Source: a virus
Taxonomy: Duplodnaviria > Caudoviricetes
Reading direction: 5' to 3' (one strand)
IMG/VR virus record: IMGVR_UViG_3300005805_000149
Span: 1-44,563 of that record
Length of the DNA: 44,563 nucleotides
Position 1 is the stretch's first letter. The number at the start of each line of letters is the position of its first letter. Made by a program: the position numbers and the translations under genes. Below, piece by piece: positions 29,257 to 41,341 of this stretch. The notes under the pieces were generated by a model. That model searched no databases, was not told the DNA's origin, and worked only from the letters and a program-made list of their open reading frames with translations.

Positions 29257-29273
<17 letters not shown>

Positions 29274-30402
29274 TTATTGGGTCATCTACTGGAAAATTGG
29301 GGTTTGTATTTGTTGTAATGATAAAGTCCCAATTATCGTTAGCAGCAATACTATTAGCGGTAATTGATATTTCAGCGTTTGTGGTTGGATCACCATTAGC
29401 ATCCAATCCAGGTGTTACGGTAACAGTTGTGTAGAATAGCTCAGAGCCAAGCGTTACATCAAATACTGCACCAGTACCTGCTGAAGTGTTACCATTTGTT
29501 GCATTAGATGTAGTTGTAGTATTAGCAACTTGAGTTCTGATAATAGATGAATTTGCAAAGCTACCACCAGTTAGTATTACTAGGCTGGTAATAGAGCCAG
29601 TAGCATTTGTTGTAATCTTAGCAGTACTGTTGCTTGTGCCATTAGAGAATGTAATAATCTGATTATTGACATATCCACTACCAGCATTTGTTACCCCAAC
29701 CCTAATCACTGCATTTGGTCCACTATTGGCTGTCTCAACATCAGCCTCAAAACCAGGAGCAACGAATGTTCTTGTTAGAGCAGTGTTGATAATATTCTTA
29801 TCCTTAACAGGACCAAATACATAGCCCTTCATTGTAAAGTTTAATGTATGGATAATAGTTCTTCTATTTTCATATGAATCTTCATAGGTATCCTCTGTTG
29901 TGATTGTATTCAATACCAATGGAACATCCATACGAAGATCTAGATCATCAACTAGCTTAATAGTGTTTGTCCACTCTGGGGTAAAGTACGGCAGTATCTG
30001 CTCAATTAACATTGTACCATCTTCAGCATTTAGGACATAGATTGACAATTCAAAATCAATATTATATGGTACAGGATTATAGACAGAGGAGTTTTTCATA
30101 TCCTGGTCAGCTGGTGTTTTAATCTGGCCCACAGTTGTTAACTTCCTTGTTCCATCATAATTATACCCAGCTATCTGAAAGCTCATTCTTGGAAGACTAA
30201 TAGCATCAGGCTTTGTAAGATTTGGGTCTTGCTGAATTCTTGATAAGAACTTTGCTCTTGGACCATAGGCAATAGGTACCTTGATACGTTTGATGATTGT
30301 ACCAGCGTTGTTTCTTCTATGAACAACCATGTCATTGAACATTGTGCCAAACACAATGACATAGCGTCTGATTGTTTCGTGATAAAACTCGTTACCAAAC
30401 AT
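29257..30402 (-). CDS. gp15: Tail sheath terminator with an inserted ~90-aa domain
   Basis: FYHETIRR..I.FG..FN, VPIAYGP, LPRMSF, PVPYN, EQILPYF.P. Confidence 0.93.
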
Positions 30403-31070
30403 TAGTAGGTATTAGCCTCTGAAAATGGGTTGATTTCAGTAAAGTCAAGAATATTGTCACCTCTTGTTTCAAACTCTTCGTTCTGAGCTTGCTTATCAAT
30501 TGTTGATATATTGAATTGAGTGACAACCTGAGTATTATTAGCCATTGCAAAGCTGAGGTCATTGTATGTGTCGTCAATGGCTGGAATGCCTGTTGCAAAT
30601 GTTTCTTGATTAAACTCAAATAGTTCACAAACAATATCAAATGTTTGTAGTGAACCCATTTGATAAAAGATAGCCTCATGCTCAACAAATCTAACAACAT
30701 ACCCTTTGTTTGTTAGAGGGAAGAATATCATATCCCCTTCTCTTGGTCTTTGTAGGCCAACTACATTTTCAGAGAATGATCTTCTGGCTATTGTGAAAGT
30801 AATTCTGTCTCTAATTTGTAGACCAAATTTGGATAGGAAATCACCCTCACCTTCAAACCCTTCAACATTCTTAATGTATACTTCAACAGAATATGCGTTA
30901 TTAAATCTTGCAACTTCATCTTCTTTAAAAATACTATCTTCTACCGATACTGTTCTTGGGCAGTAAAATATTTCAAGACCATATATTCTAATTGATTCTA
31001 AAACTAAATCTTCAATTAAGTTCTGCTCTTGACTATTATCAAAGTTGTTAAAATAAAAATTTGTAGGCAT
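30402..31070 (-). CDS. gp14: Neck protein
   Basis: EQNLIEDL..ESI..YG, SKFG, RPREGD.I.FP, FYQ.G, NPF. Confidence 0.94.
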   Translation of the reverse strand: MPTNFYFNNFDNSQEQNLIEDLVLESIRIYGLEIFYCPRTVSVEDSIFKEDEVARFNNAYSVEVYIKNVEGFEGEGDFLSKFGLQIRDRITFTIARRSFSENVVGLQRPREGDMIFFPLTNKGYVVRFVEHEAIFYQMGSLQTFDIVCELFEFNQETFATGIPAIDDTYNDLSFAMANNTQVVTQFNISTIDKQAQNEEFETRGDNILDFTEINPFSEANTY

Positions 31071-31073
31071 TTT

Positions 31074-31814
31074 TTATCCTACCATGTGGTAAGCTGGTAA
31101 TGTATATGAAGTTTGCATTTCTTGTTCTAGAGCTTCAATTTCTCCCTTTGCATCATCTTGAATCTTTTCGCCATTGAACTGAACACCACCTGGGAGAACC
31201 ATACCAGTGAACTTTGTTAGGTTTGAGCCCCACTGATATTTAATCTGGGCTGTTGCATAAAGAGCTAACCAACGGTCCGACCAAACATCTGTAAATGTGT
31301 CTGGGTCAACAATCTGATAGGCCTCGACAACAAAAAACTCACCCTCGACCGCTTGGGTCCAATCCATATCAATAAACAATCTATCCTTATGTCTACTATA
31401 GCGTATAGGCTTTTGGCCAACGAGAATCTCTTCAAGAAACTGAATATGCTGCATTGCCATGACATATGGCACCATTGACTGTGTAGTCAACGTATAAAGA
31501 TCGTTTAGTGCAATTTGGTAACGAATGTTGAACAGGTTCATTGTGTTTAAGCTTTGGCCAACAGGAAATAGCTTAACAACACCAATAATATTTTCTGGCA
31601 GAGTAATGTACTTGTTGGCAATATCTGTTGACGTGATTTGGTGCTTATAATACAATTTTTCAGACCCATCAAAATGATAGTCCCAATAGTACTTTAGTGA
31701 CTCGTCAATACGGTCTTCAACCTGGTCATCATCCACGTTAATTTCAATAACTGGCTTACCTAATTTACGAAGGCAAAACTCTTTGAATTCAGATCTGGAT
31801 GTTGGAACTGCCAT
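31074..31814 (-). CDS. gp13: Neck protein
   Basis: CLRKLG.PVIEINV..DQ, QWG.NL.KF.G..LPGGV. Confidence 0.95.
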   Translation of the reverse strand: MAVPTSRSEFKEFCLRKLGKPVIEINVDDDQVEDRIDESLKYYWDYHFDGSEKLYYKHQITSTDIANKYITLPENIIGVVKLFPVGQSLNTMNLFNIRYQIALNDLYTLTTQSMVPYVMAMQHIQFLEEILVGQKPIRYSRHKDRLFIDMDWTQAVEGEFFVVEAYQIVDPDTFTDVWSDRWLALYATAQIKYQWGSNLTKFTGMVLPGGVQFNGEKIQDDAKGEIEALEQEMQTSYTLPAYHMVG

Positions 31815-31846: not shown

Positions 31847-31854
31847 TATTTATA
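31847..31854 (-). promoter_or_regulatory. Late promoter (gp13)
   Basis: Exact TATAAATA overlapping the upstream stop codon. Confidence 0.8.
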
Positions 31855-32743
31855 GATCAATTATATCCAGACATTGGTAGAGACCACTGGTTAATTTTTC
31901 TGTTTCCTTTCCATTAATCCTGATTTTATTCAACGTTGTCGCTGGTAAAAAGCTATCTAAGTTATTAGTAAATTGGCTATACAAGTTAAATGGATAACCA
32001 TAAACCTCTTCTGACCTTAGAGAATCATTTGATTTAATTGACTTGTTCCATAGATTTACAATGAAACCTGACTGAATTTTGAGATTGTGACCTATGGTTT
32101 GCCGAGCTGAAATAGCAGTGCCAATAAGAGGATCATCTTTACCATTGAATTCTCTACCAAGTACCATAATGTTTTTCTTTTTGACTGCATCTGATAGAAG
32201 CTGGGTATCTGTTTTTTCAAGATCTAGAGCTTGCACCTTAGTAACATCAACAACAAAAAAATTCAAATCAAACGATAAATCGCGCTGCGGTAACCCAATC
32301 ATATGATACATTGATAATTGATTATCATTGTTATACACTCTTGAATAACATAACCCACATGGTTTAAATCCTAGGGCATCTTTTACATGATTTGTATAAT
32401 CATTATTGACAATTGCTCCACTTAGAATACAAGCAACTATTTCATTATATCCCAAATCCATAATAACTCTAATAGTAGAAATTAAAGAATTTCTAATATC
32501 AAAATCATCTACAACATAGGCTTTATAATCTAAATTGTTTGTTTTAATATAAGATAATATAAGCTTATCGTAATCTTTAAATGCCTGGTAATCAGCCTTG
32601 GATGCATTCTCACTATACATTCTGTTATATTTTTCAACCTGGCTACCAGGTATAATAATAGTCACATCTTTAATACCCCTATCCTTGAGAGAGTTAAGGG
32701 TTAAGAATGTACCATGGTGTTGAGCAATTACAATTGTTTTCAT
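31850..32743 (-). CDS. Hypothetical protein, possibly a degenerate GT-A (GT8-like) fold
   Basis: N-terminal strand-helix with LTLNSL, and FDLNFFVVD resembling the GT8 FNsGvlv.d motif; no DxD; translationally coupled to the upstream gene. Confidence 0.35.
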   Translation of the reverse strand: MKTIVIAQHHGTFLTLNSLKDRGIKDVTIIIPGSQVEKYNRMYSENASKADYQAFKDYDKLILSYIKTNNLDYKAYVVDDFDIRNSLISTIRVIMDLGYNEIVACILSGAIVNNDYTNHVKDALGFKPCGLCYSRVYNNDNQLSMYHMIGLPQRDLSFDLNFFVVDVTKVQALDLEKTDTQLLSDAVKKKNIMVLGREFNGKDDPLIGTAISARQTIGHNLKIQSGFIVNLWNKSIKSNDSLRSEEVYGYPFNLYSQFTNNLDSFLPATTLNKIRINGKETEKLTSGLYQCLDIIDL

Positions 32744-33726
32744 GGCTGCTTCATCCCACCTTGTTCTTTCAATTCTTTTTCAATAACATCATCACCCACC
32801 TCGCCAGGCTTCTTAGAAAGTGTAATGTGCTTATGCTTCTTCATATTGTCAAAGAATCTTTGAACACATTCTTCTTTGTTCTCATGATGAACACTAATTA
32901 GTCCTGACTCTGGATATGACATGAGGGCGGCAAATTTGTTAACAAGTTTATCCTTAACACCGCATCTATCCAATGAAGTATATACTGCCTCAAAGGTTTT
33001 ACCAACCTTACCTTCCTTATTGTCAATAAGACCAATACCCTTTCCAAGAATAACAGCAGCACAACCTGTTTCAGAGGACAGTGTGAAGTATACTTTCTTT
33101 GCTCGTTTGAGAATTGGATACATTGAAGCATCGTTCTTGACCACTCTACCCTTAAATCTCTGCTCTAGCATTGTTTGCCAAACTTTAGCAGTGATGGGAT
33201 GAAGTTTGACCCAGGCTCCATTATTATAAAGCTCTTCAACTTTTTTAAAATCAACTGCATCTTTTGTAATTAAGTTAGTACCTGGGAGGAGCACTAATTC
33301 ATTTACGTCACCATATTCTAGATCTAGGTCTTCATCTAAAAGATACTTGTCAGTAAGGTTGGCTCTTAGAGCTTCTACAATTCTATGGCCTTCTGGGGTG
33401 GCTCCCTTTCTAATACACTCAACCATATTTTGAGTTGCAATTTTTGTATTGCATGGTGCAAGATAGAGAATTTGTGTCAATAGATCAGTGAACTTATACC
33501 CAGCTATTGTGCCACTGGGGCTACCGTAATTGATATCATATTCAATTTTGGAACCATTTGGGTTCTTTGGAATATGCTTAGCAATTTCTGTTAATCTTGC
33601 ATTTGCTGGCGAACGCAGCATATTACCGGATTTCATAAAATGGGTCACATCATCATTGACCCACTCGTTAGAAGACATGGTAAAGAACTTAGTCTTTCCA
33701 CCTTTTGCTGGAACTTCGGCTACCAT
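32740..33726 (-). CDS. KpsS/KpsC-like (capsule biosynthesis, GT-B-like) glycosyltransferase
   Basis: WVKLHP, then ILKRAKKVY...SSETGCAAVILGK, matching the KxHP ... S..G..A...GK pattern of CMP-sugar transferases. Confidence 0.6.
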   Translation of the reverse strand: MVAEVPAKGGKTKFFTMSSNEWVNDDVTHFMKSGNMLRSPANARLTEIAKHIPKNPNGSKIEYDINYGSPSGTIAGYKFTDLLTQILYLAPCNTKIATQNMVECIRKGATPEGHRIVEALRANLTDKYLLDEDLDLEYGDVNELVLLPGTNLITKDAVDFKKVEELYNNGAWVKLHPITAKVWQTMLEQRFKGRVVKNDASMYPILKRAKKVYFTLSSETGCAAVILGKGIGLIDNKEGKVGKTFEAVYTSLDRCGVKDKLVNKFAALMSYPESGLISVHHENKEECVQRFFDNMKKHKHITLSKKPGEVGDDVIEKELKEQGGMKQP

Positions 33727-33740
33727 AATATAATTCCTTT

Positions 33741-33932
33741 TTAGACGCCAATACGCTCATCAACATCATCTGACTGCTGAAGCGATTGAAGTTTCTTTTC
33801 AGTTTCGTGAACTTTCTTTTTTAGGGTTTTGATTTCCTGATGGAGATCAATCATCTTTTGGAGGACAACTTCCACAAAAGACTCTAACTTTTTATCAAGC
33901 TGCTCATTACTAACTCTTTGTTCATCACTCAT
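33741..33932 (-). CDS. Small coiled-coil protein
   Basis: Heptad pattern (LHQEIKTLKKKVHETEKKLQSL); GAGGTG RBS before ATG 33932. Confidence 0.65.
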   Translation of the reverse strand: MSDEQRVSNEQLDKKLESFVEVVLQKMIDLHQEIKTLKKKVHETEKKLQSLQQSDDVDERIGV

Positions 33933-33960
33933 ATTATTCACCTCAATTGGGACATGTTTA

Positions 33961-33971: not shown

Positions 33972-36900
33972 TTATGAAATCTTGGATGTAGATGTTACCT
34001 TGCTTGTTCCAGTTGATTTACTGGTACCAGTAGATTTACTTGTTGACACCATTGTACCAGCTCCAGAATCTGTATCAAATGTAGTTGTTGTATCAAATGT
34101 AGTAGTTGTATTGTATGTAGTTGTTGTATCAAACACTGTCAAATAAGAAGTTTCAACAGCTGTGTTAAATACTGTATTTTGTGAAGTATTATAGGCTGTG
34201 TTACGGCTTGTTGCATAAGCCGTATCGTATGTGCTGCTTGTTGTCTTACTTGTGACAACCTGGGTATCAATCAATGTATCAAAGGCTGTTGTTGTATCAA
34301 ATACAGATACTGTATCAAATACAGTTACAATTTCTGTATCAAATGTTGAAGTTGTATTTCTTGATGTTGATGTTAGAATATTTGTATCATAAGTTGTTTC
34401 AAAAGCTGTTACTGTATTAAATATAGATGTTGTTGATCTATTTGTAGAAGTGTTTCTATTTGTAGCATAGGCTGTTTCAAATGTAGTTGATGTATTGAAG
34501 ACAGATATTGTTGCTATGTTTGTATCATATGCTGTTTCAAATAGAGTTGTTGTAGATCTTGATGTGGCAGTAGCCCTAGATGTCTCTGTGGACCTAGATG
34601 TGTCAATTGTTGTATCTGTGGTTCTAGATGTATCAGTTGTTCTATTTGTATTGTAAGCAGTTTCAAATGTGGTTGATGTATCAAACACAGATGTTGTTGA
34701 TCTATTTGTAGAGGTAGCTATGTTTGTAGCATATGCTGTTTCAAACGCAGTTGATGTATCAAACACAGATGTTGTTGATCTATTTGTAGAGGTAGCTATG
34801 TTTGTAGCATAAGCTGTTTCAAAGGTAGTTGAAGTATCAAATGTTGAGGTTGTATTTTTGTTTGTTACAACAAGTGTATTAAATGCAGTAGATGTATCAA
34901 AGTTTGTTGACTTAACATCAGATGTTTGATATGCAGTAGCAAATGTTGTTGTTGTATCAAAGACAGATGTTGTAGATTTACTTGTATCAATTACAGTGTC
35001 AAACGTAGTAGTCGTATCAAATGTAGTAGTTGTTATATATGCTGTAGTAAATGTTGTAGTTGTATTAAACGTAGTTGTCGTACCATACGCTGTTGTAAAT
35101 GTTGTAGTTGTATTAAATGCAGTAGTTGTACTTCTAGAAGTAGCTGTGGCCCTAGATGTGCTAACTGTTGTATCTGTTACTCTGGAAGTAGATGTAGTTC
35201 TAGATGTGCTAACAGTTGTGTCTGTTACTCTAGATGTTGATGTTGCTCTAGATGTATCTGTTGATCTAGATGTATCAAAGGATGATGTGGTACTTCTGGA
35301 TGTAGCAGTTGCTATAGACGTGGCAGTAACTAGTGATGTATTAAAGGATGATGTGGTACTTCTGGATGTAGCAGTTGCTATAGACGTGGCAGTAGCTAGT
35401 GATGTATTGAATAATGATGTTGTACTTCTAGATGTAGCAGTTACTATAGACGTGGCAGTAACTAGTGATGTATTGAATAATGATGTTGTCTGTACAGATG
35501 TAATGAACGTTGATGTTGTAATGACAGATGTATTGAATAATGATGTTGTCTGTACAGATGTAATGAACGTTGATGTTGTAATCACAGATGTATTGAATAA
35601 TGATGTTGTCTGTACAGATGTAATGAACGTTGTTGCAGTAACGAGAGTTGTAATGAACGTTGTTGCAGTAATGAGAGTTGTAATGAACGTTGTTGCAGTA
35701 ATGACAGATGTAATGAACGTTGATGTTGTAATGACAGATGTATTAAATGAGGAAGTCGTATTTTTTGATGTGTTAAAGTAGAATGTTGTGTTAAAGTAGA
35801 ATGTTGTATTGAAAGATGTGTTACCACCAGCACTTGTGCCAGTAGCAAAGAAGAATGTGGTTCCTTTAGTTGTACTTTTTGAAGTAGCAGTATAGGCGTA
35901 GTATGGTAAAGGGATACCTTTATAATAGCTAAAGCCCACAATAGTAAATGTTTGAAATGATGTATTAAATGTAGTATTACCACCAGCACTTGTGGTTGTG
36001 TTAAAGTAGAATGTTGTGGCACGAGATGTACCAGCAACAGCTGTTGTACCAGCAATGGCTGTAGTAATAAATGTTGTTGCAGTAATGACAGATGTAATGA
36101 ACGTTGATGTTGTAATGACAGATGTATTAAATGATGAAGTTGTCTGTCTTGCTGTGTTAAAGTAGGAAGTTGTCTGTCTTGCTGTGTTAAAGTAGGAAGT
36201 TGTCTGTCTTGCTGTGTTAAATAATGAAGTTGTAATTACAGATGTAATGAACGTTGATGTTGTAATTACAGATGTATTAAATGATGAAGTTGTAATGACA
36301 GATGTAATAAATGTTGATGTTGTAATGACAGATGTATTAAATGATGAAGTTGTAATGACAGATGTAATGAACGTTGTTGTTGTATTGAATACAGAAGTTG
36401 TTGCAAATACAGTTGTTGTAATAAGAGATGTAATAAACGTTGTTGTTGTATTGAATACGGAAGTTGTTGCAAATACAGTTGTTGTAATAAGTGAGGTAAT
36501 AAACGTTGTTGTTGTATTGAATACAGAAGTTGTATTAAATACAGTTGTTGTAATAAGTGAGGTAATAAACGTTGTTGTTGTTGCAAATACAGTAGTTGTA
36601 TCAAATGTTGTTGTAGTACCATAGGCAGTATTGAATGTTGTCGTGGTATCAAACGTTGTTGTAGTACCATAGGCAGTATTAAATGTTGTTGTAGTATCAA
36701 ATGTTGAGGTTGTTGATCTAGATGTTTCAGTTGCTCTACTTGTATCAATTATAGTATCGGTAGTTCTAGATGTTGCAGTTGCTCTAGATGTATCAATTAT
36801 TGTATCTGTTCCTCTAGATGTTGCAGTAGCCTTTGTTGTGTTATAGGCAGTTGCAAACACCGTAGACGTTGCACGACTTGTAGATGTTGCTTTACTTGTA

Positions 36901-37835
36901 TCAATAACTGTGTCCTTAATTGTACCAGTATTAAAGACAGTATTTGTTATTCTAGATGTATCATAGCCAGTATCAAATACTGTACTTGTTGATCTAGTGG
37001 TTGCTGTATTACGAGCAGTGTTGATTGTTGTATCAAATACTGATGTTGTATCAAATACTGTAGTCGTGGCTCTACTTGTAGATGTTACTCTATTTGTGCC
37101 AATGGTTGTATCAAATACTGATACTGTATCAAAAATTGTTGTTGTGGCTCTAGAGGTTGCTGTGTTGCGGGCAGTGTCAATTGTTGTATCAAATATTGTC
37201 GTTGTGCCAAATACTGTAGTAGTAGCATAGGCAGTTTCAAATGCAGTTGTAGTTTGAAATGCAGTTGTAGTATTAAATACAGATGTTGTGCTTCTGCTAG
37301 TGCCAATAACTGTATCAAATACAGACGTTGTTAGAACTTCTGTTGCTGTGTTTCTTGCTGTATTGATTGTTGTATCAAATATAGTGTTTGTGTCAAATAC
37401 TGTAGTTGTTGCTCTACTTGTAGATGTTACTCTATTTGTACCAATTGTTGTTTCAAATACAGTTAATGTATCAAATACAGTGGCAGTTGTTCTAGTTGTA
37501 GCATAGGCAGTGGATCTATTTGTAGATGTATTTTTACTAGTAGCTGTTTGCTTACTTGTACCAAATGCTGACTCATAAAACGTAACATATGCTGTGGTTG
37601 TATTTTTGTTTGTGCTTACAGCCGTATCAAATGTTGTAACAATGACAGTGTCAAATGTAGTTGTTCTGGATGTTTCGTAAATAGTTTCTCTAGTAGCGGA
37701 GAAAATTTGTCTTAGTGTACCATTATCATTAACAAAGGCATCCCTAACAGTACGGAGAATACCGCCGTCATTAACTTTTAGAATTTCGGCTTCTCTTAGA
37801 GTACCGTTGTCATTGAAGAACAGCTTATTTGGCAT
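33972..37835 (-). CDS. 1287-aa Thr-rich repeat protein with self-complementary halves; putative giant beta-hairpin virion fibre
   Basis: Uninterrupted ORF; N-terminal (V/F)ND(N/G)G.LR x3; body built from T-x-[F/Y/R/K/I/V/L]-x and T-x-T-x-[same]-x units; unique IVGFSYYKGIPLPYYAY at the midpoint. Confidence 0.85.
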   Translation of the reverse strand: MPNKLFFNDNGTLREAEILKVNDGGILRTVRDAFVNDNGTLRQIFSATRETIYETSRTTTFDTVIVTTFDTAVSTNKNTTTAYVTFYESAFGTSKQTATSKNTSTNRSTAYATTRTTATVFDTLTVFETTIGTNRVTSTSRATTTVFDTNTIFDTTINTARNTATEVLTTSVFDTVIGTSRSTTSVFNTTTAFQTTTAFETAYATTTVFGTTTIFDTTIDTARNTATSRATTTIFDTVSVFDTTIGTNRVTSTSRATTTVFDTTSVFDTTINTARNTATTRSTSTVFDTGYDTSRITNTVFNTGTIKDTVIDTSKATSTSRATSTVFATAYNTTKATATSRGTDTIIDTSRATATSRTTDTIIDTSRATETSRSTTSTFDTTTTFNTAYGTTTTFDTTTTFNTAYGTTTTFDTTTVFATTTTFITSLITTTVFNTTSVFNTTTTFITSLITTTVFATTSVFNTTTTFITSLITTTVFATTSVFNTTTTFITSVITTSSFNTSVITTSTFITSVITTSSFNTSVITTSTFITSVITTSLFNTARQTTSYFNTARQTTSYFNTARQTTSSFNTSVITTSTFITSVITATTFITTAIAGTTAVAGTSRATTFYFNTTTSAGGNTTFNTSFQTFTIVGFSYYKGIPLPYYAYTATSKSTTKGTTFFFATGTSAGGNTSFNTTFYFNTTFYFNTSKNTTSSFNTSVITTSTFITSVITATTFITTLITATTFITTLVTATTFITSVQTTSLFNTSVITTSTFITSVQTTSLFNTSVITTSTFITSVQTTSLFNTSLVTATSIVTATSRSTTSLFNTSLATATSIATATSRSTTSSFNTSLVTATSIATATSRSTTSSFDTSRSTDTSRATSTSRVTDTTVSTSRTTSTSRVTDTTVSTSRATATSRSTTTAFNTTTTFTTAYGTTTTFNTTTTFTTAYITTTTFDTTTTFDTVIDTSKSTTSVFDTTTTFATAYQTSDVKSTNFDTSTAFNTLVVTNKNTTSTFDTSTTFETAYATNIATSTNRSTTSVFDTSTAFETAYATNIATSTNRSTTSVFDTSTTFETAYNTNRTTDTSRTTDTTIDTSRSTETSRATATSRSTTTLFETAYDTNIATISVFNTSTTFETAYATNRNTSTNRSTTSIFNTVTAFETTYDTNILTSTSRNTTSTFDTEIVTVFDTVSVFDTTTAFDTLIDTQVVTSKTTSSTYDTAYATSRNTAYNTSQNTVFNTAVETSYLTVFDTTTTYNTTTTFDTTTTFDTDSGAGTMVSTSKSTGTSKSTGTSKVTSTSKIS
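34660..36800. repeat. Nested coding tandem repeats (30-, 48-, 60-, 66- and 78-bp units) inside the Thr-rich gene
   Basis: e.g. gttgtctgtcttgctgtgttaaagtaggaa x3 near 36140-36220; 66-bp units near 35290-35490 and 36370-36580; 78-bp units near 34670-34830. Confidence 0.9.
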
Positions 37836-37847
37836 TATAAAGACCTA

Positions 37848-38036
37848 TTACTGGTACACTAGCCAAATATGACCATTTGATGTTGCACCGACATTGACTG
37901 GGGCTGTACCTGTAATTGTTATTCTTGATTCCGTATAATGTTGATTGGCTGGTGTACCGCCAAGATTATTAGCATTATTGGCAGTTACTGGATATACAGC
38001 TTCTTCGACGTTAGATGGTTTAATTTTGGTTGTCAT
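37848..38036 (-). CDS. Small fibre anchor/adaptor-like protein
   Basis: 62 aa; ANNLGG linker and C-terminal TAP...GHIWLVY, a motif seen at phage fibre junctions. Confidence 0.55.
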   Translation of the reverse strand: MTTKIKPSNVEEAVYPVTANNANNLGGTPANQHYTESRITITGTAPVNVGATSNGHIWLVYQ

Positions 38037-39728: not shown

Positions 39729-40280
39729 TTACCAATATTGAGTCTGACTGTCTGAATGAAATGTTCCCCAGCTATGATCTGCTCTTTTTCCTGCATTGGT
39801 CCACCAACGAACCCAAATATATCCTGTACAACAACAAGATATTTTTCTAACTGAAAAACACAATCTTTTTTTTCCACCATACGTGGAGGCAGATTCGTAG
39901 ATGTATGGACTAGATGCAGGAGTCATTGCGCCACCTGCGCCGCTGCGATTAATTCTCACTGCACTGCCATAAAAACTATCATCATATCCGTTTGTATTTA
40001 CAATTGCTTTAAAATCATGAAAGCACTCTGCAGAATATGTATGATAGCCAACAACCTCAATAATATAAGGATTCCACCCCATACCATCTGCAATTTTAGT
40101 TGGTAATGGTGTTCGTACATGGAGCCAAGGATGCCCAGTACCCAAACAATCTGAGATTGATGAACCATCACAAATACAATGGGATAGTATATACCACTCA
40201 GACATATCTGTTGAGTTATCAAGAATGTAATTTGCGCCTGTTAAATTACCTGAGATTGTAGATGATTGTAAAGATGCCAT
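39729..40280 (-). CDS. Cys/Trp-rich fibre-associated module, paralogue 3
   Basis: MASLQSST N-terminus; HVRTPLP, YHTYS, STYGG.KRLCFSV, CCC, WVRWW. Confidence 0.65.
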   Translation of the reverse strand: MASLQSSTISGNLTGANYILDNSTDMSEWYILSHCICDGSSISDCLGTGHPWLHVRTPLPTKIADGMGWNPYIIEVVGYHTYSAECFHDFKAIVNTNGYDDSFYGSAVRINRSGAGGAMTPASSPYIYESASTYGGKKRLCFSVRKISCCCTGYIWVRWWTNAGKRADHSWGTFHSDSQTQYW

Positions 40281-40777
40281 TAATATGCTCCTGTGGTATC
40301 AGCAGCAGTGGTATATGCCCATGCAAAACTATTCCATGCGCCATAATTATTCCACCAACGAATGAACAAATGCCCTGGTTCACCATTTTGATCTTGGCGA
40401 ACTGAGAAACAAACTCGAGTAACACCACCATAAGTGCTTGAAGAACGATAAACTGTTGGCGAAGATTGATATCCATCATTCATTGGAATCTGTGATCCAT
40501 ACCAGCTATTATCATATCCATTCACATTTAATAGTGCCTTGAAATCGTGAACTTTGTCACCACTATATCCATTAAATCCATAAACTTCTAAAATTGAAGG
40601 ATTCCATCCAAGATAACTTGTATCTGCTGGTAGTGGAGTGCGAACATGAATATACGCAGTAGTTGATCCGGTATATGATATTTTATACCATGGAGTTTGA
40701 TTTGAGTTGCTACCACCAAGCATCTGCCCAGATATTGTAACACTTCCATTAATTGTTGTAGTAACTAAATTTGCCAT
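40280..40777 (-). CDS. Fibre-associated module, paralogue 2
   Basis: MANLVTTT N-terminus; HVRTPLP, HDFKA, SSSTYGG..RVCFSV, IRWW. Confidence 0.65.
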   Translation of the reverse strand: MANLVTTTINGSVTISGQMLGGSNSNQTPWYKISYTGSTTAYIHVRTPLPADTSYLGWNPSILEVYGFNGYSGDKVHDFKALLNVNGYDNSWYGSQIPMNDGYQSSPTVYRSSSTYGGVTRVCFSVRQDQNGEPGHLFIRWWNNYGAWNSFAWAYTTAADTTGAY

Positions 40778-40786
40778 ATGACACTC

Positions 40787-41341
40787 TTAAAAATACGGCC
40801 ACACATTTGTTCTTTGAGCAGCCCCTGTTTGGCCCCATGAATAATGATTCCATAGATTTGTTACAGCAGCATCCCCCCACCATCTCATCCAGATCCAACC
40901 AACACAGCAGCACCCAATTTTTTGAACACTAAAACATAATCTTTTATACCCACCATAAGTGCTTGAAGATTTATAAAAATATGGTTCATAACTTAACCCA
41001 TATGACCCTGCGTTTACCCTGGCACTAGATTCTAAATTATCACTACCATCAATGTTAATAACAAATTTAAAATCACTAGTATATTCTCCACTGTATGTGT
41101 GGAATGCTGTTATCTCAAACATAAAAGGCACATTTCTAATTGTACTATAGCTTTCACAAGGAATTGGTGTTCTAATATGTAAATAGCCACCAGAGTATGT
41201 TGGATTACAATCAGAGGTTGAAGGACAGTCGCCACAGTGATATAATCTTGTCCATGGAGTGCACCCACCACCTTGCTGAAATATTCCACCTGTCACATTT
41301 AAAGGATTTCCACCAAGTGCTATTGATTGCAAAGTTGCCAT
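40787..41341 (-). CDS. Cys/Trp-rich fibre-associated module, paralogue 1
   Basis: MATLQS N-terminus; HIRTPIP, FHTYSGE, SSSTYGG.KRLCFSV, CCC, WMRWW. Confidence 0.65.
   Translation of the reverse strand: MATLQSIALGGNPLNVTGGIFQQGGGCTPWTRLYHCGDCPSTSDCNPTYSGGYLHIRTPIPCESYSTIRNVPFMFEITAFHTYSGEYTSDFKFVINIDGSDNLESSARVNAGSYGLSYEPYFYKSSSTYGGYKRLCFSVQKIGCCCVGWIWMRWWGDAAVTNLWNHYSWGQTGAAQRTNVWPYF

Follow-up and report, generated by a model that had tools for sequence, protein, structure and literature searches.

Which fold could a phage protein adopt if its two halves complement each other residue by residue? The question is raised by an open reading frame encoding a Thr-rich hairpin protein of 1287 aa (36% Thr; 33972..37835, minus strand) from a lake-water phage. 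It lies on the window, which is the whole stretch of DNA analysed here (44,563 nucleotides, IMG/VR record IMGVR_UViG_3300005805_000149). We propose that the protein forms one very long, single-chain, two-stranded antiparallel beta-hairpin, acting as a thin virion fibre, and give this reading a probability of roughly 0.8.

Gene and sequence searches

Substitutions relative to homologues were biased to the third position. By PHROGs, the gene sits between tail-fibre genes and gp13 of a T4-like gp13, gp14 and gp15 set (29257..31814, minus strand), beyond which are terminase, sheath, tube, portal and major head genes.

The protein had no family match in Pfam, PHROG or NCBIfam, tail-fibre profiles included, although its low complexity limits such searches. 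Regions 1-70 and 480-800, used as protein queries, gave zero matches at E<=0.001. With the low-complexity filter on, tblastn of the whole protein against 50,697 cultured-phage records gave no match, and tblastn of its N-terminal cap against cultured phages reached only E=0.3. PDB sequence searches with the cap returned nothing useful. The first Atlas matches (0.85-0.89) were to unnamed viral clusters and are leads only, and a VIA search with a low-confidence apex model was uninformative (best Z 2.4). A GTDB scan with one pattern gave seven matches, none in an ORF of at least 200 aa with more than 13% Thr; cellular forms may exist. The RNA runs X19 and X20 held scattered pieces of relatives only.

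One antiparallel register and its code

A first-pass annotation had described two arms pairing in antiparallel register like an RNA stem-loop, and this was borne out. Residues i and 1280-i pair gaplessly across 581 pairs, bringing together an N arm (residues 49-629; 35949..37691) and a C arm (residues 651-1231; 34143..35885). Between them is an aromatic-rich apex, variable among homologues (residues 630-650, centre G640; 35886..35948; all on the minus strand). A scan of all anti-diagonals with more than 200 pairs showed the single sharp peak that had been predicted, at S=1280, where 116 of 137 aromatic-containing pairs (0.85) faced R/K/I/V/L. The other anti-diagonals averaged 0.20 (sd 0.06), with a runner-up of 0.46. 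Shuffling, 2000 times each, reached maxima of 0.41 for the full sequence, 0.48 for C-arm repeat units and 0.54 for 40-residue blocks. A pair matrix, with four other homologues as its training set, scored 575 at S=1280 over residues 49-629/651-1231, and 91 at the next register. Under the same aromatic rule only, the best parallel pairing (i, i+D) reached 0.40, against 0.85 for the antiparallel one, which argues against a beta-solenoid register.

One face holds 291 pairs, of which 172 are Thr/Ser:Thr/Ser, in line with the Thr-to-Thr alignment seen at first, and 116 are aromatic:non-aromatic. The partners in the 117 aromatic key pairs were R/K (57), I/V/L (50), A/G/Q (9) and F (1). The annotated rule that an aromatic always faces a non-aromatic holds for nearly all pairs, the exceptions being F:F at 301:979 in the stem and F:Y beside the turn. 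The cation-pi code proposed with it fits the 57 R/K partners, but aliphatic partners and Thr:Thr pairs carry an equal share. Successive key pairs were 6 (58), 4 (53), 2 (4) or 10 (1) residues apart, mostly the 4/6 spacing reported before. The two arms supplied the aromatic equally often, 58 times each. Face parity was strict: across residues 47-630 and 650-1233, 59/59 R/K were at odd and 112/113 D/N at even positions. Where an N-arm aromatic was followed by a C-arm aromatic, the spacing was 4 in 226/233 cases in 11 proteins, and in 557/705 in 39 distant relatives. Such a direction-dependent rule is expected for a twisted ribbon.

In the packing that we propose, every second residue would lie on one face, with Thr:Thr alternating with an aromatic against Arg, Lys, Ile, Val or Leu. 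Opposite F-Y-F, which takes up more space, the partner would be Gly or Ala. Irregular 4/6 spacing, together with the side-switching aromatic, would serve as an address, favouring one register far above slipped ones. We consider this face packing and address-like code very probable.

The code recurs in a C-terminal mini-hairpin (residues 1235-1256/1264-1285, S=2520; 33981..34133, minus strand), which was identical in its rules, shared with homologue L001 and missing from nine other complete close homologues.

At the DNA level, the arms are no inverted repeat, as had been noted: reverse-complement identity at the register was 0.28 (mean 0.26), and inverted repeats were short and scattered. Mirror (reverse) identity was 0.42, barely above other in-frame offsets (0.40). 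An inverted or mirror DNA origin of the arms was rejected on these near-background identities.

Homologues and distant relatives

Comparison of homologues showed separate registers and indels mostly matched across the arms. Eight close homologues (662-1319 aa) each had their own single register (S=1292, 1216, 1368, 710, 1335, 1204, 1140 and 1200), each exceeding all 2000 unit shuffles. Between L029 and L030, N-arm differences of +22/+12/-4 lay opposite C-arm differences of +22/+12/-4. For five of six long C-arm tandem arrays, the mirror position, derived by hand, held an N-arm array with the same period (78, 48, 48, 66 and 60 nt). In the base region (112 positions per face), four divergent homologues showed 0-3 class changes on the key face vs 11-23 on the other.

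The single register was broken in two homologues. L023 is nearly identical to L025 apart from 22 residues that it lacks on one arm, and L011 has 36 residues in excess; these unmatched indels are assembly errors or tolerated bulges. Offsets from independent arm alignments agreed at only 41-97% of positions (8 pairs).

The unique peak, the strict face parity, the separate homologue registers and the matched indels together make a strong case that the arms pair antiparallel and in register. A disordered mucin-like or beta-solenoid repeat protein, with the mirror pattern a relic of inverted duplication or an assembly artefact, would agree with the low complexity, the low AlphaFold2 confidence reported below and the glycosyltransferase-like neighbours. 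We nevertheless find this reading hardly credible. The DNA identities are near background and F stands opposite R, not F, while register upkeep through matched indels and class conservation requires ongoing selection. As to an artefact, contigs of two runs covered 30/30 bins with at most one differing letter among the pieces listed, no contig spanning the gene, and the pattern recurs in many independent assemblies.

Pattern scans revealed 39 more complete relatives (250-2084 aa; not dereplicated), which retain the register over 52-929 pairs. In about ten of them, only the basal part matches the trained code. In a register test for non-hydrogen-bonded sites in 12 relatives, Cys did not pair with Cys across the register. 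Adhesin-like domains occur at the apices of some relatives, of which only the stalk L046 carries a glycine-rich PF21722 domain there. One phage contig holds two such proteins of differing length, L002 and L046. The code was also found in the Stenotrophomonas phage DLP6 (KU682439.2), in a C-terminal extension of the baseplate protein gp7 (AMQ65900.1; 46/63 at S=1949; 232 pairs).

Length that varies freely while the register is kept could also suit a ruler role, or a long tube with the hairpins as beta-barrel subunits, used in assembly or DNA delivery with no outward fibre; long hairpins make barrels in pore proteins. This we rate as very improbable, given the tight linkage to a fibre-tip motif (below), the adhesin-like apices and the two unequal proteins of one phage. 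A hydrophobic membrane-spanning segment was not seen.

Structure prediction and assembly state

The single exact antiparallel register means that the chain likely folds into a very long two-stranded beta-hairpin. At 0.33 nm per residue, 581 pairs would measure ~190 nm if fully extended; the ribbon of about 200 nm first envisaged is thus close in length, and its in-register pairing is strongly supported. AlphaFold2 gave a mean pLDDT of 31 for full-length L004. A 113-residue apex fragment, whose alignment window was picked for agreement with the register, gave a mean of 41, with 10 residues at or above 70. Prediction of central fragments, proposed with the original claim, thus yielded the turn, placed within a single chain at the predicted centre K639-G640 (block pLDDT 76), but no confident stalk. 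AlphaFold2 support is limited to this turn, and we infer the stalk fold.

With the register kept, hairpins might assemble further, three of them as a T4 gp37-like needle of six strands, or two chains by a head-to-tail swap. Ribbons would then pack together over the aromatic face and bury it. Intra- and inter-chain pairing look the same in sequence, one face is strongly aromatic, and rungs that never bear two aromatics would fit tight packing in a core. For the stem of the gp37 needle, the available text describes Gly packing on Phe of another subunit (PMC6957217). Against this, Arg/Lys make up 57 of the 117 key partners and would be difficult to bury on a trimer axis, and there is neither Cys nor His for metal sites (zero His in residues 49-1231 or elsewhere). 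The three internal repeats of the cap suit a single chain on a trimer, the DLP6 stalk is fused to gp7, and AlphaFold2 closes the turn inside one chain. We therefore regard higher assembly as unlikely, and infer from sequence a monomeric two-stranded ribbon that would be located on the virion.

Possible docking, neighbouring genes and proposed function

The conserved N-terminal cap (residues 1-47; 37695..37835, minus strand) has three repeats of an N[DQ]xGxLR hairpin motif and is likely a docking domain. Its short strands had pLDDT 50-60 in the model of L004. All 39 distant relatives have the cap by selection, as its presence defined the set. The first-pass annotation was silent on the cap, the mini-hairpin and the conserved neighbouring genes.

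Immediately upstream, a 62-aa ORF (37848..38036, minus strand) ends in a G-H-I-W-L-V-Y motif. Motifs of this type end the upstream ORF in 17/17 close and 38/39 distant loci, and also terminate annotated tail fibres. Two of seven upstream proteins tested matched tail-fibre PHROGs strongly, and a third at its N-terminus. The 62-aa ORF is likely a fibre-tip adaptor. Together with the gene position before gp13 and the gp7 fusion in DLP6, this motif makes a virion fibre highly probable.

A downstream trio (all minus strand) begins with a coiled-coil-like ORF of 66 aa (33741..33941), syntenic in several close loci and DLP6. A conserved 328-aa partner follows (phrog_26179; 32740..33726), with homologues downstream of the hairpin gene in 38/39 distant loci. 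It weakly resembles beta-Kdo transferases: its profile matched KpsC (E=0.05) and 5fa0 (E=1.1), and HP and NS-x-G motifs (GT107/GT99) align in the KpsC match. PF05159 appeared below cut-off in 2/28 of its homologues. Matches to designed helical repeats were judged compositional. The 297-aa third protein (31850..32743), covered by an alignment of 16 syntenic proteins at 14-55% identity, is possibly glycosyltransferase-like. Its nearest named Atlas cluster was GT2 (score 0.91, 131 shared features); it and its family had no Pfam match and nothing useful in PDB sequence searches, and by eye no DxD motif was seen.

The fibre base would hold both chain ends and its distal end the variable turn; we lean towards contact of this apex with the host or a host appendage. 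The three-repeat cap would dock as a single chain on the upstream protein's three-fold tip, in the manner of gp38 on gp37; we slightly favour such binding. Left unshielded, a two-stranded ribbon 190 nm long would be expected to aggregate through its free edges. The two downstream proteins may act on the stalk by glycosylation or as chaperones and protect its edges, a role to which we give even odds; glycosylation itself seems somewhat less probable.

A broader proposal is held tentatively, as rather doubtful. The four or five genes might be a portable phage module building monomeric beta-hairpin antennae of programmable length (~17-300 nm). Its register code would evolve like an RNA stem: duplications would be matched, bulges and side stems would arise, and loop domains could be exchanged. 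The pseudo-three-fold cap would clip onto any trimeric fibre tip, and the module's own enzymes would glycosylate the hairpin.

Comparison with known systems

The first-pass annotation knew of no such phage fibre, and we found none in the literature (chiefly open-access main texts), family libraries or solved structures searched. To our knowledge, long protein fibres are built as coiled coils, collagen helices, solenoids or trimeric beta-spirals. If true, a two-stranded beta ribbon zipped up from one chain, with hundreds of pairs and no gap, would add a new class of fibre. Its code, simple and readable, would supply natural data on beta-strand register specificity and could serve as a template for protein nanowires of programmable length.

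T4 fibritin (wac), an alpha-helical parallel trimer, is likewise encoded just before gp13. A fibritin-type heptad coiled coil with foldon does not match the 36% Thr, the two-residue parity or the lack of a profile match. In SMC and Rad50 fold-back coiled coils, too, long antiparallel arms of one chain bring its two ends together, but these arms are alpha-helical.

The T4 gp37 needle (D10-D11) is also an out-and-back chain with a distal tip. According to the available text, residues 811-881 and 1010-1026 make up D10 and flank the receptor-binding tip, and Gly packs against Phe (PMC6957217); the S=1280 chain is likewise predicted to turn back, at K639-G640. That needle spans ~130 residues out and back and is an obligate trimer with seven His-held iron sites (PMC6957217). 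The hairpin protein, in contrast, has 581 pairs, no His, a Thr-rich two-letter pairing code and no sequence match in the profile searches above, which its low complexity limits.

According to the available text, the gp38 of T2, T6 and S16 is monomeric; its gene adjoins that of the trimeric fibre tip, to which the protein attaches by an N-terminal domain (PMC12032242). Gene linkage suggests a similar arrangement here, and the L046 apex carries a glycine-rich domain. Unlike the hairpin protein, gp38 is compact, with a beta-helix, a C-terminal polyglycine sandwich and no long stalk (PMC12032242); our protein has 29 Gly in its 1287 residues and no glycine-rich C-terminal polyglycine II sandwich domain.

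The flagellotropic phage 7-7-1 bears long, thin, flexible capsid fibres of 88-114 nm, whose protein is given as unknown in the available text (PMC12796354). They resemble the proposed fibre in shape, with no sequence link in the tblastn search (50,697 phage records, low-complexity filter on). The hairpin family offers candidate genes for thin phage fibres of this kind.

DLP6 has the same pairing code and the same downstream gene trio. Its extension differs in being fused to a baseplate wedge protein, shorter and without cap. The available text of the DLP6 paper has no description of the extension, fibre measurement or proteomics. As DLP6 is a cultured phage, the design is testable now.

Genomic setting of the hairpin gene

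The window is part of a T4-like phage genome. As revealed by PHROGs, genes for gp13, gp14, gp15, terminase, sheath, tube, portal and major head protein lie downstream of the hairpin ORF, and genes resembling tail fibres lie upstream. The nearest cultured phage was Stenotrophomonas phage DLP6 (69% identity in the major capsid protein), and the best four matching sequencing runs, possibly its source, were lake-water metagenomes from a single study. Thr accounts for 462 of the 1287 residues encoded by the hairpin ORF (33972-37835, minus strand), for which no match was found in Pfam, PHROG or NCBIfam. An upstream 62-aa ORF (37848-38036, minus strand) shares the frame of the hairpin ORF; the gap between them (37836-37850) amounts to two stop codons plus three other codons, and no evidence of readthrough across it was found. 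Three paralogous Cys/Trp-rich ORFs (39729-41341, 165-184 aa), without family match, sit downstream of a tail fibre that carries a Peptidase_S74 domain.

Pairing register

The first-pass annotation had predicted a single anti-diagonal peak near S ~1280, with residue i paired to S-i. The sole sharp peak was found at S=1280, where R/K/I/V/L was faced in 116 of 137 aromatic-containing pairs (average 0.20), above all shuffle maxima (0.41 full, 0.48 unit, 0.54 block; 2000 each); under the same aromatic rule, the best parallel register reached 0.40. With a trained pair matrix, the true register scored 575 and the next 91. The stem joins residues 49-629 with 651-1231, without gaps. Its 291 odd-position pairs comprised 172 T/S:T/S, 116 aromatic:non-aromatic, one F:F and two others; Thr does face Thr as proposed, and the rule that an aromatic always faces a non-aromatic held in 116 pairs and failed in the F:F pair. 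Even positions hold nearly all D, N, A, G, E and Q, and this alternation every two residues is the pattern expected from a beta strand. Near the apex, F-Y-F triplets lie opposite triplets of G-G-A or A-V-A type, also as noted earlier. The DNA is indeed no inverted repeat (reverse-complement identity of the arms 0.28 vs 0.26). The mirrored pairing pattern is real.

The pairing is locally defective between residues 301-309 and 971-979 (approximately 36990-37010 and 34895-34915), where F:F is succeeded by I-K-D opposite V-D-S-T-Q. This defect recurs in the related loci L001, L003, L023 and L025, and is possibly a kink or binding site. Weaker complementary registers occur inside the N arm (residues 84-176 with 226-318, S=402, score 67 vs 575), possibly as duplication relics or folding traps.

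Conservation of the register

Eight of the 10 complete close homologues (662-1319 residues) had their own gapless single register, each exceeding every one of 2000 unit shuffles. In nine of the 10, the C-terminus was level with the end of the 47-residue N-terminal cap. The window protein and L001 share an extra 22-pair mini-hairpin. Between L029 and L030, +22, +12 and -4 residues occurred on either arm at mirrored sites; the remaining homologue pairs were less clean (offset agreement 41-86%), because repeats blur the alignment. Five of six long C-arm tandem arrays lay opposite an N-arm array with the same period (mirror positions set by hand). Compared with the homologues, substitutions were biased to third codon positions, and class changes were rare on the key face, that is, the odd positions. 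The register is kept by evolution, although L023, 22 residues short on one arm, and L011, with 36 surplus residues, count against this.

Aromatic spacing was handed. Toward the apex, an N-arm aromatic followed by a C-arm aromatic had spacing 4 in 226 of 233 cases (11 proteins), and the opposite order was split between spacings 4 and 6 (114 to 132). In the distant relatives described below, the same two orders gave spacing 4 in 557/705 and spacing 6 in 578/690. Such a rule would be needed for packing along a twisted ribbon, not for a flat sequence mirror.

Distant relatives and the gene module

Two degenerate patterns retrieved 140 viral loci carrying 126 Thr-rich ORFs, with the cap present in 41 complete ORFs. 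Once the two ORFs that duplicated L001 and L011 and an ORF with a broken frame were taken out, and L071 was put in by eye, 39 distant relatives were left, a set that was not dereplicated and was selected by the cap. They had 250-2084 residues and 52-929 pairs, some with apex inserts of 85-165 residues; in about 10, the trained code fitted the basal part only.

The upstream ORF ended in G-[HFY]-[VIM]-[WF]-[YFL]-[VI] in 38/39 distant and 17/17 close loci. Among seven such proteins tested, two matched PHROG tail fibres and another matched fibre N-termini. A homologue of the 328-aa gene (32740-33726, minus strand) lay within 2 kb downstream of the hairpin gene in 38/39 distant loci; after it, the inspected loci carry a gene aligning weakly with the 297-aa gene (31850-32743, minus strand). 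Both conserved partners are weakly glycosyltransferase-like (KpsC, E=0.05, for the 328-aa protein; a GT2 cluster, 0.91, for the 297-aa protein). At one module locus the major head protein was non-T4, and the module therefore crosses phage lineages.

In one subfamily (L089, L076, L098, L123, L060), the distal stalk turns to Cys/His motifs with apparently 9-residue periods, possibly metal sites or regular bulges; Cys:Cys pairing across the register was not found there. Five loci (L074, L095, L112, L087, L194) carry pairs of adjoining capless Thr-rich ORFs with short internal stems only; here the two arms may be split between genes and pair in trans.

A second hairpin form adjoins or is fused to baseplate gp7, in DLP6 (232 pairs) and L046. 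The L046 protein (2275 aa, L046:2421-9248, after gp7, on a contig shared with L002) has a PF21722 glycine-rich domain at its apex and a second stem (residues 1329-1449/1456-1576). It also repeats D-S-G-A-G-T motifs resembling the turn of the window mini-hairpin; the second stem and these motifs suggest a branched, cloverleaf-like chain. For DLP6, 229-bp "direct terminal repeats" are reported in a region said, in the available text of PMC5349666, to be devoid of ORFs. They fall within an unannotated frame (L039:40894-43488 and L038:3-1655, the ends of KU682439.2) that runs off either end of the record, where the text overlaps, and finishes in what by eye resembles a Hint domain; the repeats may thus reflect circular permutation with an assembly overlap. 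This frame shares the hairpin gene's place, ahead of the gene trio and gp13.

Structural model and comparison with known fibres

AlphaFold2 failed on full-length L004 (pLDDT 31). For window residues 584-696, strands 621-638 and 641-655 flanked K639-G640, the predicted centre, with just 10 residues at pLDDT 70 or more and an alignment window picked for agreement with the register; the central-fragment prediction thus favours the turn and little more.

Most likely, the chain would nucleate at the turn and zip baseward, giving a twisted ribbon of two strands, up to ~190 nm long. Between the Thr:Thr rungs, Arg, Lys or aliphatic partners would cover the aromatic rings, and slippage would be penalised by the irregularity of the pattern. 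The leading alternative is that several hairpins bundle together, resembling the gp37 needle in the available text of PMC6957217. In the single-ribbon model, the three-repeat cap would dock as a single chain onto a trimer formed by the 62-aa protein, the variable, aromatic-rich apex would reach the host, and the conserved partners may coat or chaperone the stalk. The cap arrangement, proposed here from gene linkage, is likened to gp38, which is monomeric and binds gp37 according to the available text of PMC12032242.

The hairpin protein is very likely a new fibre architecture, its function being read from context. Within the literature available to our search, no description of such a design was found. 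The closest solved design known to us is the gp37 needle, a trimeric, iron-bound structure several times shorter than the one proposed here; its His sites are absent from the window protein.
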